Below are positions 32,440-38,938 of a stretch of DNA of 64,000 nucleotides, piece after piece (the first letter of the stretch is position 1; every line of letters begins with the position of its first letter). The notes beneath the pieces were generated by a model. That model saw nothing but the letters and a program-made list of their open reading frames with translations, searched no databases and was not told where the DNA came from. Source of the DNA: an uncultured delta proteobacterium (GTDB lineage Bacteria > Desulfobacterota > Binatia > Binatales > Binataceae); contig CAWJET010000001.1 in assembly GCA_963842085.1 (NCBI GenBank), positions 1,952,001-2,016,000 of the forward strand. The letters run 5' to 3'. Both the position numbers and the translations under genes were made by a program.

Positions 32440-33894
32440 ATGGCGCATCAGGAGCTCCGCGAAGCACTTACCTTCGACGACGTTCTCTTGATCCCTCAAT
32501 CGTCCGATTTGCTGCCGGCGAATTGCGACGTCTCGACCGCGCTGACGCCCAAGATCCGCCTGCGTATCCCGCTGGTCTCGAGCCCGATGGACACCGTCAC
32601 CGAATCGCGCACGGCGATCGCAATCGCGCAGATGGGCGGGATCGGGTTCGTGCATCGCAATCTTTCGATCGAAGAGCAGGCCAGCGAGGTCGAGACGGTC
32701 AAGAAATATGAAAGCGGGATGATCGTCGATCCGATCACCGTCAGTCCCGAGCAGAAAATCGGCGAGGCCCTGGCGGTGATGGAACGCTACCGGATTTCCG
32801 GGCTGCCGGTGGTGTCGGACGGCCGCCTGGTCGGGATTCTGACCAATCGCGACCTCCGCTTCGAGCGGCGGCTGGACAAGCAGGTGCGCGACGTGATGAC
32901 CAGCAAAGTGATCACGGCGCGTCCCGGAATCGATCTCGAACACGCCAAGGAACTTTTGCAAGCGCATCGGATAGAGAAACTGCCGCTGGTGGACGAGCAG
33001 AACCGGCTGCGCGGGCTTATCACCGTCAAGGACATGGACAAGGCAATTCGGCATCCGCATGCGAGCAAGGATCAGATGGGGCGGCTGCGGGTTGGCGCGG
33101 CGGTCGGCGTCGGTCCGGAGCGGGAGGCGCGGGTGGCGGCGCTGCGGCGTGCGGGCGTCGACGTGATCTGCATCGACACCGCGCATGGGCATACGCGCAA
33201 CGTGATCGACGCGATCAAGGCGACCAAGAGCGAGTGGCCCGGGGTGGAAGTGGTGGCCGGAAACGTCGCGACCAGCGAGGGCGCCAAGGCGCTGTGCGAC
33301 GCGGGGGCCGATGCGCTGCGCGTCGGGATGGGACCGGGGTCGATTTGCACGACGCGGGTGGTGTCGGGAGTCGGCGTGCCGCAGATCACGGCGATAATGG
33401 ATACAATCGCGGTTGCCGAGCCGCGCAATATCCCGGTGATCGCCGACGGCGGAATCCGGTTCTCCGGCGATATCACCAAGGCGATTGCGGCCGGCGCGAA
33501 CAGCGTGATGATCGGCTCGCTGTTCGCGGGCACCGAGGAAAGCCCCGGCGAGACGATTCTCTACCAGGGGCGTACGTACAAACTTTACCGCGGGATGGGA
33601 TCGATCGGCGCGATGAACGAGCGCACGGGAGATCGTTACGGGCAGCTCAACCTGACCGACGGCAAGCACGTGCCGGAAGGAATCGAGGGGCGCGTACCGC
33701 ATCGCGGGTCGCTCGCGTCGAATATCGAGCAGCTGGTGGGCGGGCTGCAATCCGGGATGGGCTACCTCGGTGCGGCGAACCTGGCGGAGCTACGCAAGCG
33801 GGCGCGCTTCGTCAAGGTGAGCGACGCCGGGATGCGCGAGAGCCACGTGCACGACGTGTTCATCACGAAGGAAGCGCCGAATTACAGACAGTAG
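32440..33894 (+). CDS. guaB: IMP dehydrogenase
   Basis: 'LTFDDVLL', CBS pair, catalytic 'GPGSICTTR', 'IADGGI', 'YRGMGS', 'VPEGIEG'. Confidence 0.98.
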
Positions 33895-33920
33895 GATGCG
33901 GGGCTCCTCGCCCCGCGCCC

Positions 33921-34116
33921 CCGGCAGGGGTGACCCCTGCACCCAGTATTCAGAAAAGAAGGATGCGGGACTTCGTCCCTGTTAGGAGTTGTCTTGGGGT
34001 CGCGGCAAGCATTCTGCGCATGGCCGCGCTGCGACGGCATTCAGCTGGAACCGCAGAACCCTCACCTGTCGGCCGCGATGCGGCCGGCCGCCTCTCCCGT
34101 AAAGGAACGGGCGAGG
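33921..34116. repeat. Family A hairpin (33921-33944) and family C unit (34053-34116)
   Basis: GCAGGGGTGACCCCTGCACCC; GCAGAACCCTCACC...CTCTCCCGT..ACGGGCGAGG, also present at 62763-62806. Confidence 0.7.
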
Positions 34117-34186
34117 TAATTAGGGCATTAATATACTTGACTGACCGAACATGGTAAAGTGTCCGTGACGTGACAGGCCGAATGTT

Positions 34187-35556
34187 TTAACGATTGGTTC
34201 GGTCGCTCTCCATCAACTCTTCAGCGGTACGACGCGAAGGATCGAGAGACGGCATATGCTCGAAGTAATCTTTGCGACCGGGGCTTAATCCCATGCGATA
34301 GAGATGCTCCGGTTCGTTAAGCATCTGTTCGACAGTAACGAGATGAATTTCTAGCTTCTCTGATCGGACGCGGGCGACCTCTTCGTGAGAACCGCTCGTG
34401 AAGCTGAATGCGACAATATATCCACGGTTCTTTTTCGCGCGCTTCATCGCTGTTTCAAAGTTGTCAACTACATTCCGCCCGACGCTTTCGGATTGTTTCA
34501 CTTGTACTGGTTCGTGAAGCAAAAACGTCCAGCCGTCGATCCCCATGTCTCCACTTTTGCGATTTGTCTGGATGCCTGTGATCTGCGCGATCACCCAGTT
34601 CTGAAATTCACCTGGCTTCAACTGTTTCAGGTCTTCAATCGAACTTGGCATCCCGATTAGTGTGATTTCGGTGCTTAGTTTACCGAACCGTCGGTTAATC
34701 AGATTGCAAGCTGTGGGCGAGATGTCGATCCCATCCAGCGGCGTTTTAGCTTTTGTGCAACGGTCAGCGCCGTGCCGCAACCTGCAAACGGATCGAGGAC
34801 GATTTCGCCCTTATTTGACGATGCCTTTACGAACACTTCCAACAGACGTTCGGGCTTCTGAGTCGGATAGCCCATGCGTTCTTTTGATGACGGCATAGTT
34901 GGTTGAATGTCGAGCACGTCGTCAGGATGTTTGCCAAGCGGATTCGCTTCGTAAGTGTCGTAAACGTGTTCGCCAGTCGCCGTCTTGCGGAACGAGCGGG
35001 CTTTGTATTTAAGGCGGTCGAGCGATTCCTGACTGTACTCTGTGCGAATTTCATCGACGTTGAACGTCCATTCGTCGCCCTTGGTGTAAAAGAAAATGGT
35101 GTCATGGCGTCTGCCAAACCGCTTGGACGAAACGCCGCCGCCTCGATAGTGCCAGATCACTTCGTTCTGAAAATGATTCGCGCCGCATACTTCGTCGAGC
35201 ATCGCCTTTAGGTAGTGAGCGGCATGCCAATCGCAATGCAGGTACATCGAGCCAGTCGGCTTGAGCACGCGCCAGATTTCGTGCATCCGTTCCCGCATCC
35301 ATTCGACATAATGATGGACGCCACCTTCCCAACGGTCCTCGAAACTGCGGACTTCGGCTTCATCTCCCCAAATCACTTCGTATTGGCGATTGCTGAAAAA
35401 TGGCGGGTCGAGATAAACGAGGTCGATGGACTCCGTTGGGAGCACGGCCAACCGGCTTAAATTGTTGTCGCGATAAACGACGCCGGTTTCGGGGCCTGAC
35501 TCTTCCGGGGCTTCTATAAGGCGTGCAGCACGTCGTCTTCTGGGCATGCGCGCCAT
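34187..35556 (-). pseudogene. Beta-class N6A/N4C DNA methyltransferase fused to a C-terminal Mrr-like nuclease, split by a 1-nt frameshift
   Basis: Motif IV 'YLDPPF', 'YPTQKP' and motif I 'LDPFAGCGT'; 'RRWMG|IDISPTAC' is broken at about 34731; the downstream frame has 'EFQNW..GDMGIDG..VQVKQ'. Confidence 0.85.
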
Positions 35557-35695
35557 TCTACAGAGTCTCAAGAAAAGCGAAAGACCCGAAATGTCTGCCG
35601 CAGATAGACTCTGATAGAGAATCTATCGGGTCTATCAGACCTCTTGCGTGAAACAACTGAATGAGCATATTGTGTCCGATAGAGGTAATCCGACG

Positions 35696-36298
35696 ATGAG
35701 CAATAAAACGCAACCTATCAGCCAAGTACAGAAATTTGCGGATGAAGCCGAAAGGCTCGGCTGCTACTCCAAAGACCAGCGGTACAATTTCGGAACCGCT
35801 TGGGCAATCGTGCTTAAAGGCCTCACGGGAACGGGGCTGACAGATGCCTCTACTGTGGAGCAGTTGCGCCCGAAAATCGCAGAAATTTTCAAGGAACACG
35901 GGCGTCAAAGCCGCGCCAAGGCCGACAGCCTCAAAGCGTACTCAGGGCGTGTCATGCGGCTATTGGATGATTTTTTGAAGTACAACGGCGGGGATTTCAT
36001 GGCGTGGAAGGAAGCGCTGGCAAAATCTCCGTCAAACGATGATAATGGAAAACGTCGGCGGCGGAAGCCGTCGCGCCAGACTAGCAGTGGCGGAGATAAT
36101 ACCGACGTTATGATTCATCGTTTGGTCGTGCGGCAAGGAACAGAAGCGAAGATAGAGCTTCCTCAAGACCTATCTGAACCCGAACTTGAATCTGTGTGGG
36201 CGCAACTAACCGCGCTGAAGGGATACATCAAAGCACAGATTGAAGCCTTGGAGAAAAAGCCCGCGAAGACTTCGGAAAAAATTGCGCCGCAGGTCTGA
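35696..36298 (+). CDS. Hypothetical protein (IS passenger)
   Basis: Open frame of 200 aa with an AGAGGT RBS before ATG 35696; predicted helical N-terminus and a basic 'KRRRRK' linker. Confidence 0.7.
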   Translation: MSNKTQPISQVQKFADEAERLGCYSKDQRYNFGTAWAIVLKGLTGTGLTDASTVEQLRPKIAEIFKEHGRQSRAKADSLKAYSGRVMRLLDDFLKYNGGDFMAWKEALAKSPSNDDNGKRRRRKPSRQTSSGGDNTDVMIHRLVVRQGTEAKIELPQDLSEPELESVWAQLTALKGYIKAQIEALEKKPAKTSEKIAPQV

Positions 36299-36377
36299 CA
36301 ACCTACGGCGCTTGAAGCATCTCCGCCCGTGGATGGGCAAAGGACGGTGACGCTAAGTGCGGAGACCCCGCGCGTTA

Positions 36378-36542
36378 TTATGAACGCGCCCCCGCAAGGG
36401 GGCGCTTCCTACGCGGCTGTTTAATCGTTTTCTGGTCAACTTCTTTCTTGCTCACCGCGAGAACGCCCCGCGCTAGTTTGCGCAAACGATCAAACGCGGC
36501 CCCTGGTTCAAATTTTAAATTTTCAACCTTCGGAGATTTCAC
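36378..36542 (-). CDS. Small basic protein downstream of the IS1595 transposase (54 aa)
   Basis: GTG-start ORF 'KSPKVENLKFEPGAAFDRLRKLARGVLAVSKKEVDQK...', below the ORF-track cutoff; from memory it resembles short ORFs that trail IS1595 transposases. Confidence 0.5.
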   Translation of the reverse strand: MKSPKVENLKFEPGAAFDRLRKLARGVLAVSKKEVDQKTIKQPRRKRPLAGARS

Positions 36543-36582
36543 GAGCGACAGCGTAACACGTTGCCGCTTTCCCCGCCATTGC

Positions 36583-37539
36583 TTACGCCGGTAAGGGTTC
36601 GGCGGTCGATTCGGTCTTGCCAGTCAATTCCGCATACGTGAGCCGTCTGCCAAGCACGGAACTGGCAACGCCGATGAACCGCTCGCCGTCGTTCAGCTCG
36701 CGCTCGTTGAAGCGATACGCCTGTTCATCCAGATAGCGGAACAGGTGAAACGGCTCGACGCTGACGTATGTTCCCTTGAGACCACGTTTCAGCAGACTCC
36801 AGAAATTCTCGATTTTGTTAGTATGCACGTTGCCATCAACGTAGCGTTCGGCGTGATCGATCACATTGTGAATGTAATCCTGATCGAGGCCGTGATAACC
36901 GGCCCACGCATCAGTGAAGACATACGAGCCACCCTGCACATAGCGGCGCACATGGCTCTTGAGCGTTTCGCCTTGCGTGTTCGGTACATGAACGAGCCGG
37001 ACCTTGGAGCTATGCCGGTCCAGCAGACCCATCACGATTGCTTTACCAGCCCCGCCTGTGCCCGTGATTTTGGCCTTCTTGCTTTTGTGCATGTTTCGAG
37101 CGAGGCCGCCGATAAAAGTTTCGTCTGCTTCAACCTCTGAACCGGGGAACATATCGACCGACTGATTCTGCATCGCGAGCCGAATGCGATGATCCATGAA
37201 CCATGCGGTTTTCTGTGTCACGCCAAGACCGCGTGCCATTTCATAGCTGCTGATTCCGTTCTTGCAGTTCGCGATCAGCCACATCGCGGGTAGCCACTTA
37301 TCAAGGCCGATTGGCGAGTCCTCGAAGATCGTTCCGACCTTGAGCGAGAACTTTGCGCGCGGATGTTTCACGTAGCATTTCCACAGACGCGCCTTTTCGA
37401 GATACGTCACTTTCTCCGATTTGCAAGTCGGGCATCGGACCGTGCCATCCGGCCAGCGCATCTCGATCATGAATTGCTGGCAGTTATCGAAATCGGTGAA
37501 GTAGCGCATCGCTTGCTGGAGTGTGCTTGGATACTTCAT
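36583..37539 (-). CDS. IS1595-family (ISXO2-like) DDE transposase
   Basis: Zn-ribbon 'RWPDG..CPTC..WKC', HTH 'GISSYEMARGLGVTQKTAW', catalytic 'EADETFIGG', 'FTD', 'HTNKIENFWS', 'YLDE..YRFN'. Confidence 0.95.
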   Translation of the reverse strand: MKYPSTLQQAMRYFTDFDNCQQFMIEMRWPDGTVRCPTCKSEKVTYLEKARLWKCYVKHPRAKFSLKVGTIFEDSPIGLDKWLPAMWLIANCKNGISSYEMARGLGVTQKTAWFMDHRIRLAMQNQSVDMFPGSEVEADETFIGGLARNMHKSKKAKITGTGGAGKAIVMGLLDRHSSKVRLVHVPNTQGETLKSHVRRYVQGGSYVFTDAWAGYHGLDQDYIHNVIDHAERYVDGNVHTNKIENFWSLLKRGLKGTYVSVEPFHLFRYLDEQAYRFNERELNDGERFIGVASSVLGRRLTYAELTGKTESTAEPLPA

Positions 37540-37598
37540 GCCCCAAACATAGCAAATCGAGCGTGGTCAGTCAAGTATATTAATGCCGTAATTAGGAG

Positions 37599-37722
37599 CC
37601 GGGATTCTTCGCTTCGCTCTGAATGACACGAAAGGAATTGGGTGCAGGGGTCCGCGCCGGTGGCGACACCCCTGCCCAAGGAAGCGCGAAACCCACGGTG
37701 GGTTTCGCTACAATAAAGTTCC
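37599..37722 (-). repeat. Composite family A+B repeat, an inverted copy of 48693-48815
   Basis: Its reverse complement aligns almost base-for-base with 48693-48815 apart from a short linker. Confidence 0.85.
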
Positions 37723-37744
37723 TTTTCCACGCGGTGGCGGCGGC

Positions 37745-38938
37745 ATGATGGCAGAAAAAAAACGACTCAGGGTTGGGGTTCTGTTTGGTGGACGCTCGGG
37801 CGAGCATGAGATTTCGCTGCGCTCCGCGCTGACCGTGATGTCGGCGATGGATCCGGCGCGGTACGAGATCGTTCCGATTGGGATTGTCCGCGACGGGCGC
37901 TGGTATCTCGAACGCAACGCGCTCAAGCTGCTCGCCGAAAAGACGCCGCATCTTGCGGCGCTCGGCGCCGGCGGCACACAGGTGACGCTGCTGCCGCATC
38001 CGGAAGGGCAATCGCTGGAGGCGACGCCGGCCGACGGTGCGCGCGGCGCAATGACCGGCACACAAGATGCGATTCCCGGCGTCGACGTGGTGTTCCCGGT
38101 GTTGCACGGCACCTACGGCGAGGACGGCACGGTGCAGGGGCTGTTCGAGCTGGCGGGAATCGCGTACGTGGGAGCGGGGGTGCTCGGCTCGGCGCTTGGG
38201 ATGGACAAGGACGCGCAGAAGCGCATCCTGCGCGACGCCGGCGTCGCGGTGGTGAAATATTTCGCGATCGAGCGCGCCGACTACCGCGAGACTCCGGAGC
38301 TTGGGGCGCGGCTCGCGCGCAAACTTGGTTATCCCGTATTCGTCAAGCCCAACGCGCTGGGCTCGTCGATCGGAATAAGCAAGGTGAAGCGCGCCGCCGA
38401 GCTCAAAGCCGCGCTCGACGACGCTTTCCAGTACGATCGCAAGGCGCTGATCGAGGCGGCGTGCGAAGGCCGCGAGTTCGAGTGCTCGGTGCTGGGCAAC
38501 GATCGTCCCGAGGCGTCGATTCCCGGCGAAGTGCTGGTCAAGGGCGCGCATGAGTTTTACGACTACGAGTCGAAGTACGTCGATCCGGAAGGCTCCGCGA
38601 CAAAAATTCCCGCCGAGCTGCCGCCCGCCAAGACGAAGAAGCTGCGCGCGATGGCAGTGGCGGCATTCAAGGCGTTGTCGCTGCGCGGGATGGCGCGCGT
38701 CGATTTCCTGGCGAGCAGCGATTTGCGCGAGATCTACGTGAACGAGGTTAATACCATCCCCGGCTTCACGGCGATCAGCATGTATCCGAAGCTGTGGGAG
38801 GCGTCGGGCCTGCCGTTGCCCAGGCTTATCGATCGGTTGATCGAGCTGGCGCTCGAGGAACATCAGGAGCGCGCCTCGCTCAAGATCACGTATCATCCGA
38901 AATCTCTCGCGAAGTCTCCCGCAAAGCCCCGCGACTGA
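37745..38938 (+). CDS. ddl: D-alanine--D-alanine ligase
   Basis: '[11 protein letters not shown]', 'LHGTYGEDG', '[11 protein letters not shown]', 'FYDYESKY', '[10 protein letters not shown]'. Confidence 0.97.

Follow-up and report, generated by a model that had tools for sequence, protein, structure and literature searches.

Passenger genes are reportedly carried by particular subgroups of the IS1595 family of insertion sequences (IS), such as ISNwi1 and ISNha5. Single-chain restriction-modification enzymes with an Mrr-like nuclease are known from the Type ISP enzymes LlaBIII and LlaGI and from Type IIG/IIC; in them a methyltransferase and a PD-(D/E)xK nuclease belong to the same polypeptide (LlaBIII, PDB 4xqk). 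The concept of the transporter IS (tIS) in the IS1595 family is that of Siguier, Gagnevin and Chandler (2009), as quoted in excerpts of PMC11891212. The same excerpts give IS220, of the IS1380 family, as having a methyltransferase passenger, and Tn7-like transposons carry defence cargo according to PMC8649781.

The locus described here lies in a 64,000-nt stretch of DNA from an uncultured delta proteobacterium of the Binataceae (assembly GCA_963842085.1, contig CAWJET010000001.1, positions 1,952,001 to 2,016,000 of the forward strand), hereafter the window. Between guaB and ddl it holds an ordinary IS1595 transporter IS, an element of a known kind, with a single DDE transposase bearing an N-terminal zinc ribbon, short terminal inverted repeats (TIRs), an 8-bp target-site duplication (TSD) and internal passengers. 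It differs from the described tIS in its cargo, a methyltransferase-nuclease fusion gene and a rare putative DNA-binding protein (Unk200), and in that its lineage keeps a conserved 43-54-aa gene (orf54) downstream of the transposase; in the literature we found no description of the fusion as IS cargo, of orf54 or of the Unk200 family, a point on which the passenger tables of Siguier 2009 could bear. Tn7-like transposons and IS220 are likewise mobile elements with restriction-modification, toxin-antitoxin and other defence genes as cargo, whereas the elements here are minimal (2.2-5 kb), have one transposase, and share a cargo gene that recurs in four IS families. Compared with LlaBIII/LlaGI and Type IIG/IIC, the fusion family has a beta-class methyltransferase first and the nuclease at the C-terminus, has no helicase or motor, and is about 430-485 aa long. 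We consider it probable, at roughly 65%, that the element is a recently inserted IS1595-family tIS whose selfish, restriction-modification-like cargo has decayed.

The element occupies window positions 34124-37587 (3,464 bp), or 34116-37595 (3,480 bp) when the duplications are included. Its ends and the gene that would move it are as follows:

34116..34123, no strand: left copy of the target-site duplication, 8 bp, GTAATTAG (direct reading; same as 37588-37595)
34124..34146, + strand: left terminal inverted repeat (IRL), 23 bp, exact reverse complement of 37565-37587
36583..37539, - strand: intact IS1595-family transposase, 318 aa (Pfam, NCBIfam, sibling comparison)
37565..37587, - strand: right terminal inverted repeat (IRR), 23 bp (repeat finder; 23-mer search)
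37588..37595, no strand: right copy of the target-site duplication, 8 bp, GTAATTAG (direct reading)

An initial annotation, made from the sequence alone, had claimed perfect 23-bp TIRs, a perfect 8-bp TSD and an intact IS1595 transposase, and all three hold up. Direct reading and the repeat finder agree that IRL, GGCATTAATATACTTGACTGACC, pairs with IRR over 23/23 bp just inside the duplication copies. When the partly palindromic duplication is included, the repeat finder extends this inverted pair to 30 nt at 97%, compared with 20 nt at 80% for the runner-up among 127 inverted pairs. With up to 6 mismatches allowed, the 23-mer of the IS ends is found at just these two sites in the 64-kb window. 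The transposase matches DDE_Tnp_IS1595 (PF12762, 5.4e-37, profile positions 5-153 of 153), Zn_ribbon_IS1595 (PF12760, 1.3e-8, residues 18-56) and the NCBIfam IS1595 profile (NF033547, 2.3e-52, 178 bits against a cutoff of 75), and its length equals that of two intact transposases in sibling elements, to which it is 94% and 87% identical. In the plasmid collection it has no close relative (at most 40% identity). A search of 33700-38000 with Rfam at E<=0.1 returned no match.

The same annotation had proposed a recent and clean insertion, and this is supported by several lines of evidence besides the perfect ends and duplication. The 3,480-bp segment is single-copy in the 4.93-Mb genome and matches only itself; three further genome sites match it over just 182 bp at 70% and represent more distant IS1595 relatives. 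The GC content of the element is 0.53, compared with about 0.61-0.70 in flanking windows. The insertion falls exactly at the junction of two repetitive extragenic palindromic (REP)-like units between guaB and ddl. Among 24 same-genus genomes, 19 (G001-G012, G014-G017 and G019-G021) carry both the guaB and the ddl block on a single contig with 24-342 bp between them, and in all 19 the element is absent from the spacer; the other five have the blocks on separate contigs or unlisted, and two of these five are unpublished and were excluded. In the orthologue in G001 the match extends to window position 34118 and the flanks abut as ...GGCGAGGTA|GGAGTCGC..., with GGAG directly to the right of the joint. 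A paralogous REP junction in the same genome, at C1:2499610, is uninterrupted and reads GGCGAGGTTAGGAGCC. The check for an empty site in relatives gave contiguous flanks in 19 of 24 genomes. Neither of the two sites just described holds an exact single GTAATTAG, so that the empty site is demonstrated by flank contiguity, not letter for letter. In Logan contigs from three of four metagenome runs, 34115 is joined directly to 37588, the exact empty site, at a depth of 4-9; because the shorter side of this joint is 21-30 nt and REP-like repeats abound, it is at most a hint of a co-existing empty allele. A second contig joint, 34102 to 37592, was rejected as an empty site, as it is the paralogous REP junction.

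The guaB-ddl spacer itself (33890-34123 and 37592-37723) consists of REP-like repeats of about 60-130 bp each, and copies of such units, 80-97% identical, are found by the dozen both in this genome and in most others of the genus. Relative to the adjoining genes, the insertion sits 222 bp past the guaB stop (33894) and about 150 bp short of the ddl start (37745). It may cut ddl off from signals further upstream. A second beta-class methyltransferase gene is found outside the window at C1:2498353-2499144, and the paralogous REP junction, the one resembling the empty site, is about 400 bp away. The product of this gene is 33% identical to the fusion family and lacks the Mrr part.

The left half of the element holds the main cargo gene, which is split in two:

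34699..35556, - strand: 5' part of the cargo gene, a beta-class amino-methyltransferase truncated just before the GID motif (Pfam, PADLOC, homologues)
34187..34780, - strand: 3' part of the cargo gene, an Mrr-like PD-(D/E)xK nuclease domain with a conserved C-terminal tail, in the -1 frame relative to the methyltransferase (Pfam Mrr_cat)
34727..34735, - strand: 1-nt deletion splitting the methyltransferase-Mrr gene, in a CCC run at 34730-34732 on the + strand (frame comparison with intact homologues)

The methyltransferase open reading frame (ORF), 34699-35571 on the - strand, matches N6_N4_Mtase (PF01555, 2.1e-49) and PADLOC MTase_II (3e-62), has the beta-class motif order (motif IV, LDPPFF, precedes motif I, DPFAGCGT), and is 77-79% identical to full-length fusions. 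Its catalytic domain is interrupted: the frame is lost before GIDISP, and the Pfam match stops at position 208 of the 221 in the profile. The nuclease ORF matches Mrr_cat (PF04471, 7e-7, 29.9 bits against a cutoff of 21), the true domain starts near GIDISP at about 34729, and it corresponds to about residues 251-431 of homologues that are intact and 430-485 aa long. Frame A ends in ...KLKRRWMGSTSRPQLAI and a stop (...KLKRRWMG, then out of frame) and the -1 frame continues with GIDISPTACNL, while intact homologues read KRxW[I/V]GIDISPTAC across the break site. Since the two ORFs sit in different frames, the fusion is here a broken gene, and the genome has no intact methyltransferase-Mrr paralogue. 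We take the GID motif to be methyltransferase motif II, and GID with what follows to be motifs II-III. As this motif and the sequence after it are missing, the activity of the truncated methylase is probably lost too. The initial annotation was right that a methyltransferase and a C-terminal Mrr domain are present; a 1-nt deletion splits them across frames, and by writing of a repaired cassette it implied a broken gene without stating so. The functional cassette that it proposed is not functional as encoded here, because of the frameshift.

It could be argued that the gene is intact in vivo and that the frameshift reflects an error of assembly, programmed -1 frameshifting or phase-variable switching, as the break falls within a short G/C run and exactly at the domain boundary. 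We regard this as very improbable. Independently built Logan contigs from four public runs in two studies, one of which may be the source sample, span the deletion with 0 differences and 0 gaps; direct reading finds no X XXY YYZ slippery heptamer; a 3-base run is too short for usual phase variation; and the full-length homologues are single ORFs. In the nuclease part the residues D78, D82, Q93 and K95 (GDMGIDG...QVK) are invariant across 50 family sequences, and an AlphaFold2 (AF2) model of the domain has a predicted local distance difference test score (pLDDT) of 83. Among the weak Foldseek matches of this model are the Mrr-like domain of Type ISP LlaBIII (E 6.6e-3), EcoT38I, NucS and MspJI.

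The fusion belongs to a very large family. At least 586 relatives occur in GTDB representative genomes, of which the best 80 loci were analysed; among 8,000 candidate proteins scored, 7,082 match at E<=1e-3. The best family matches are single proteins of 430-485 aa with PF01555 and PF04471, 60-79% identical, and come from Acidobacteriota, Chloroflexota, Actinomycetota, Gemmatimonadota and Dormibacterota. When the proteins encoded within 3.5 kb of the fusion were clustered, the three largest clusters were all transposases, and a Pfam scan of the nearest flanking ORFs at the remaining loci added one more:

IS1595 transposase beside the fusion: 10 of 80 loci (9 by clustering, 10 by tblastn)
IS1-like transposase beside the fusion: 6 of 80 loci (clustering)
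IS5-like DDE_Tnp_1 transposase beside the fusion: 3 of 80 loci (clustering)
IS6-like transposase beside the fusion: 1 of 80 loci (Pfam scan of the nearest flanking ORFs)

Unrelated housekeeping genes such as alaS, lepA, gyrA, mreB and those for V-ATPase subunits made up most of the other neighbours in that scan, together with a single serine recombinase and a small number of defence-type genes; no conserved partner gene stands beside the fusion. Complete elements could be delimited for two of the IS families, each enclosing transposase and fusion between inverted repeats with perfect 8-bp duplications:

IS1595-type, five elements: L037, 3,907 bp; L048, 3,358 bp; L050, 3,686 bp; L057, 4,800 bp; L058, 5,060 bp
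IS1-type, four elements: L035, 4,730 bp; L047, 3,369 bp; L056, 4,712 bp; L067, 4,834 bp

With the window element included, ten elements thus combine the fusion gene with matching 8-bp duplications. The IS5-type loci L044 and L045, both from one genome, are copies of the same 4,367-bp element, 100% identical and bounded by 20-bp ends. A clean 8-bp duplication is lacking, or the contig is too short, at the IS1595 loci L038, L041, L052, L084 and L095 and the IS1 loci L039 and L055; the apparent duplications of L040 and L099 are palindromic and may be extensions of the repeat. Several of these elements also bear toxin-antitoxin-like pairs, as judged by eye from ORF lists, with Pfam used for G013 only.

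In a quick maximum-likelihood tree of the methylase domain (79 rows after removal of L102 and L111, which contain in-frame stops), the family splits into 36 and 43 rows with an SH-aLRT (Shimodaira-Hasegawa-like approximate likelihood ratio test) value of 98. Transposase-linked genes make up 21 of the 36 rows on one side and 0 of the 43 on the other. The IS families are interleaved on the tree, with at least 5 changes for IS1595 and at least 4 for IS1, and L056 (IS1) and L058 (IS1595) are sisters. The claim that the methyltransferase-nuclease gene is mobile cargo is thus borne out as recurrent carriage, seen beside a transposase in 21 of 36 rows. On the transposase-free branch, the fusion lies within V-type ATPase operons in several termite-gut Bacteroidota (L080, L089 and L093, from Prevotellaceae metagenome-assembled genomes), an odd and apparently stable place for a restriction-modification-like gene.

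Based on these observations, we propose the following explanation. The tIS inserted recently into the REP-like repeat junction between guaB and ddl, duplicating GTAATTAG. The intact fusion would methylate its own site and cut DNA lacking the mark, and so act as a self-contained selfish module of the restriction-modification type. Any DNA bearing the module would be stabilised by it, and incoming DNA could be restricted as well, a function that would explain the repeated carriage by IS1595, IS1, IS5 and IS6. The copy in this element is dead, since the 1-nt deletion just before the GID motif puts the nuclease domain out of frame; the IS itself is probably still mobile. A selfish module favouring retention of its carrier is the most economical mechanism for the fusion; that the fusion is indeed such a self-contained module, judged from the architecture of intact homologues, we would put slightly below an even call.

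The principal competing explanation is that the fusion is an orphan, or solitary, methylase whose nuclease fold only binds or reads DNA, so that the benefit to the IS would be epigenetic, by protection from host restriction or by regulation of the IS. It would fit the fact that the fusion is always a single gene with no partner, that PADLOC files it under Type II methyltransferase models, one of which (PDLC03339) extends in its alignment as far as residue 358, deep in the C-terminal region, and that the other branch of the family sits stably among housekeeping genes such as V-type ATPase operons. The GDxGIDG...QxK signature, invariant in 50 diverse members, is unexpected for a domain that only binds, and the window gene is broken, as toxic genes often are, a single case. 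We therefore think this alternative possible, if rather unlikely. Several observations nevertheless weigh against a decayed selfish module. An active methylase with an Mrr-type fusion could equally be an orphan methylase whose nuclease fold binds DNA. Carriage by IS is common and not obligatory, since 15 of the 36 rows and all 43 of the others lack an adjoining transposase, and the tree that separates them comes from a quick search and not a careful maximum-likelihood analysis. The Foldseek search with the nuclease model returned nothing at E<=1e-3, the best match being a weak one to the RPB5 N-domain (1.5e-3); a PDB sequence search with the fusion returned stand-alone methyltransferases only; the closest relatives in the plasmid collection are at most 38% identical; and we found no characterised member of the family.

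Elements of the same lineage in related genomes place this cargo in context. Four siblings in other same-genus genomes have the same 23-mer ends with 0-3 mismatches; three of the four have intact 8-bp duplications and the fourth matches at 7 of 8 positions:

G013: 2,943 bp, duplication CTAATTTG
G008: 2,911 bp, duplication CTAATTTG
G006: 2,160 bp, duplication CAAATTGG
G017: 2,979 bp, duplication CTCATCAG / CTCATCGG

With the window element they share only the left end and a right block (36306/36505 to 37596, 83-87% DNA identity). Because the siblings have the ends and the orf54-transposase block in common yet differ between them, the lineage resolves into a core, namely the two 23-bp ends and a transposase-orf54 block of ~1.2 kb by the right end, and an exchangeable cargo slot that makes up the rest. 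The slot holds a GmrSD-type protein in G017 (GmrSD_N 1e-33, GmrSD_C 1e-17; PADLOC HEC-06 2e-158), a DUF433/HTH_66 protein and a PIN_10 protein in G013, a weak DUF3800 protein in G006 and three unknown ORFs in G008. Judging from these family matches, sibling IS copies in the genus carry other, predicted addiction or defence cargo. As expected of a transporter IS, the duplication brackets the full 3,464 bp and the siblings move other cargo, each with its own duplication. The G013 and G008 insertions were considered as orthologous and this was rejected, as 12 nt to the left of the insertions are shared and the flanks are otherwise unrelated. The duplications of the lineage, including those of three distant copies in the same genome, mostly fit (C/G)(T/A)AATT(A/T/G)(G/A); they are AT-rich and near-palindromic (GTAATTAG, CTAATTTG twice, CAAATTGG, CTAATTAG and CAAATTAG, from the window, L020, L023, L024 and L002-L004). 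AT-rich duplications in a genome of >60% GC suggest a target preference.

The metagenome loci L025 and L026 belong to the same IS lineage, with 81% DNA identity from the Unk200 promoter through orf54 into the 3' end of the transposase gene. L026 keeps Unk200, and its methyltransferase slot is filled by two small unrelated ORFs. Homology to L026 breaks at window position 34185 and resumes at 35598, so the segment swapped between them is the gene plus its promoter. A resemblance of the two small ORFs to HicA/HicB was by eye only and found no match in Pfam, NCBIfam or PADLOC, and they are left unnamed. At L026:7046-8101 the transposase is truncated to about its last 44 codons and is followed by a second segment that encodes Gp49-like and HTH_37 proteins, a HigB/HigA-like pair, and is closed by another IS1595-type end.

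The core also includes orf54, and two candidate signals accompany the transposase-orf54 block:

36378..36542, - strand: orf54, encoding a small basic protein, about 40 nt downstream of the transposase stop (kept in 7 of 7 lineage elements)
37546..37574, - strand: promoter-like site for the transposase, with its -35 TTGACT within the right end (consensus scan, 9 of 12 matches with TG)
36284..36311, - strand: terminator-like hairpin and T-run downstream of orf54 (consensus scan; candidate only)

The 54-aa ORF is present as first annotated and is retained in all seven elements compared (the window element, G013, two in G017, G008, G006 and L026), with a length of 43-54 aa and a conserved K-x-P-K-V-E-D-L-x-F-E-P-x-x-A-F-D-x-L-R-x-L-A-R motif. 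Deletions of 3 nt in two of these elements leave the frame intact. The ratio of nonsynonymous to synonymous substitution rates (dN/dS, Nei-Gojobori) is 0.13-0.53 in the 15 of 21 pairs with a computable dS; dS is saturated in the other six. Seven homologues of 52-54 aa were found among 5.8 billion proteins, and there is no family match in Pfam, NCBIfam, PADLOC or PHROGs. By these substitution rates and its retention, orf54 is a conserved gene of the IS core that is under purifying selection. Our guess is that its small product may regulate transposition or act in it as an accessory factor.

A perfect GC-rich hairpin, GCGCCCCC-GCAA-GGGGGCGC, lies at 36387-36406 within the 3' end of orf54; G017a, L026 and L030 conserve it, and the shorter siblings, whose orf54 ends earlier, lack it. 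A weak promoter-like site facing outward was found in the left end (34130-34158, - strand; consensus scan). The numbers of promoter and terminator sites in the consensus scan are not above those of shuffled sequences, and all such sites are leads only. The IS1-type methyltransferase-Mrr elements each encode a basic protein of 73-86 aa near one end (L047:7325-7555, L056:7378-7602, L067:9397-9618 and L035:2857-3117), with a shared ...GG(L/A)KGG(K/R)ARA..LS.E.R.EIA..AA.ARW tail and no NCBIfam family match. This protein may be the counterpart of orf54 in those elements.

The second passenger and the region upstream of it are as follows:

35696..36298, + strand: Unk200, 200 aa, with a helical N-domain (1-110), a basic disordered linker, and a C-terminal beta-hairpin and long helix (AF2 model)
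35603..35683, no strand: GATAGA/TCTATC hexamer array in the divergent promoter region, a candidate operator (pattern count)

This 200-aa ORF, too, was correctly annotated at the outset. Unk200 has no match in Pfam, NCBIfam, PADLOC or PHROGs, and it is rare: six homologues were found among 5.8 billion proteins, and of 1.84 billion proteins searched with a profile, 80 representatives scored at E<=1e-3. Applied to 400 further genomes from the phylum, the profile gave one weak match with 2 stops (E 7e-4), treated as none, and a pattern search of genome contigs gave 98 matches of which 0 were confirmed. In the ESM Atlas it falls in unnamed clusters only (score 0.94), which serve as leads only. The AF2 model (pLDDT 74.6) shows a five-helix N-domain, a KRRRRK linker, and a beta-hairpin with a long helix. 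By title, 18 of the top 21 rows from VIA-align are N-terminal or core-binding domains of tyrosine recombinases (Z 5.0-7.8), including 3nrw (Z 7.8), IntI (2a3v, 6.8), lambda Int (1z1b/2oxo, 6.7) and XerD (1a0p, 6.0). Residues 1-100 resemble the helical, SAM-like fold of these four, with a root-mean-square deviation of 2.7-3.2 over 80-90 residues, an identity of 8-14%, and Z of 6.0-7.8, under the tool's caution line. Unlike the recombinases, Unk200 has no catalytic domain, and a basic linker, beta-hairpin and helix stand in its place. An assignment as a tyrosine recombinase was accordingly rejected: the protein is 200 aa long, has no Phage_integrase match, and has only a beta-hairpin and helix after the linker. 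Two results count against this likeness to integrases: Z stays below 8, where by the tool's own caution helical domains often score, and a Foldseek search of the model against the PDB returned nothing at E<=1e-3.

The hexamers are GATAGA at 35603 and 35613, TCTATC at 35622 and 35631, and GATAGA again at 35678. The four at 35603-35636 are 9-10 bp apart, as two direct and two inverted copies, and the array holds 5 of the window's 20 TCTATC matches within 81 bp. It is conserved in L026, where the methyltransferase is absent. In L027-L029 a relative of Unk200 lies upstream of an IS1-type transposase (PF03400), and L029 has an IS1-type end upstream of the relative. Tentatively, we suggest that Unk200 is a rare DNA-binding protein, unrelated to the methyltransferase, with an N-domain resembling integrase core-binding domains, and that it probably represses its own promoter via the GATAGA array. 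It appears to travel with IS backbones and not with the methyltransferase.

Either the Mrr-like domain or Unk200 might instead serve transposition, the former as a second-strand nuclease like TnsA in Tn7, the latter as an end-binding or cassette-exchange factor. Both genes occur on IS of more than one family, the Unk200 N-domain resembles recombinase core-binding domains including that of IntI, and the cargo swap relative to L026 is gene-sized and precise. Siblings without either gene, however, have target duplications and intact transposases, the window transposase and ends are intact though the nuclease is out of frame, most members of the fusion family have no transposase nearby, and Unk200 lacks a catalytic recombinase domain. 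We hold a role in transposition to be quite unlikely.

The initial annotation had gone further and read the methyltransferase-nuclease and Unk200, with or without the 54-aa ORF, as one functional, self-mobile defence or epigenetic system in which the unknown proteins act as regulator or accessory. The co-occurrence test that it had itself suggested speaks against this: the methyltransferase is found at 0 of 8 metagenome loci with a relative of Unk200, and a relative of Unk200 at 0 of 80 methyltransferase loci, by both tblastn and a profile search of all ORFs >=60 aa. Besides the window element, no element with the same ends was found to carry both passengers, L026 being the case that keeps Unk200 with other cargo. 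It is true that the two genes diverge from a common 124-140-bp region that holds the hexamer array, and that sibling elements do bear defence-type cargo; yet the array stays with Unk200 in L026 without the methyltransferase, orf54 is present in every sibling regardless of cargo, and the methyltransferase gene is frameshifted. A single system of this kind is, of all the explanations weighed here, the one we hold to be most improbable.

A more speculative possibility, on the whole unlikely, goes beyond the tIS with decayed cargo that we favour. One branch of the family may be a single-chain restriction-modification or addiction enzyme specialised as IS cargo, a gene-sized cassette passed between IS1595, IS1, IS5 and IS6, with small IS as platforms that offer an exchangeable slot. 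If so, orf54 and Unk200 could act in transposition control or cassette exchange, and these IS would be, in effect, the smallest known mobile 'defence islands', shuffling methyltransferase-nuclease, toxin-antitoxin and GmrSD-type genes.

As a minimal transposon with cargo of the selfish or defence kind, the locus provides a clean, dated example. The core of an IS1595 lineage gains from it a conserved small gene, and with Unk200 comes a rare family of candidate DNA-binding proteins and its putative operator. The locus also draws attention to one uncharacterised methyltransferase-nuclease fusion, abundant in uncultured soil and sediment lineages, that has been repeatedly picked up by four IS families. 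Should the fusion prove to be a module for addiction or restriction, selection would act on the IS itself, with the module guarding its insertion against loss, and this would offer a simple route for the spread of restriction-modification specificities.

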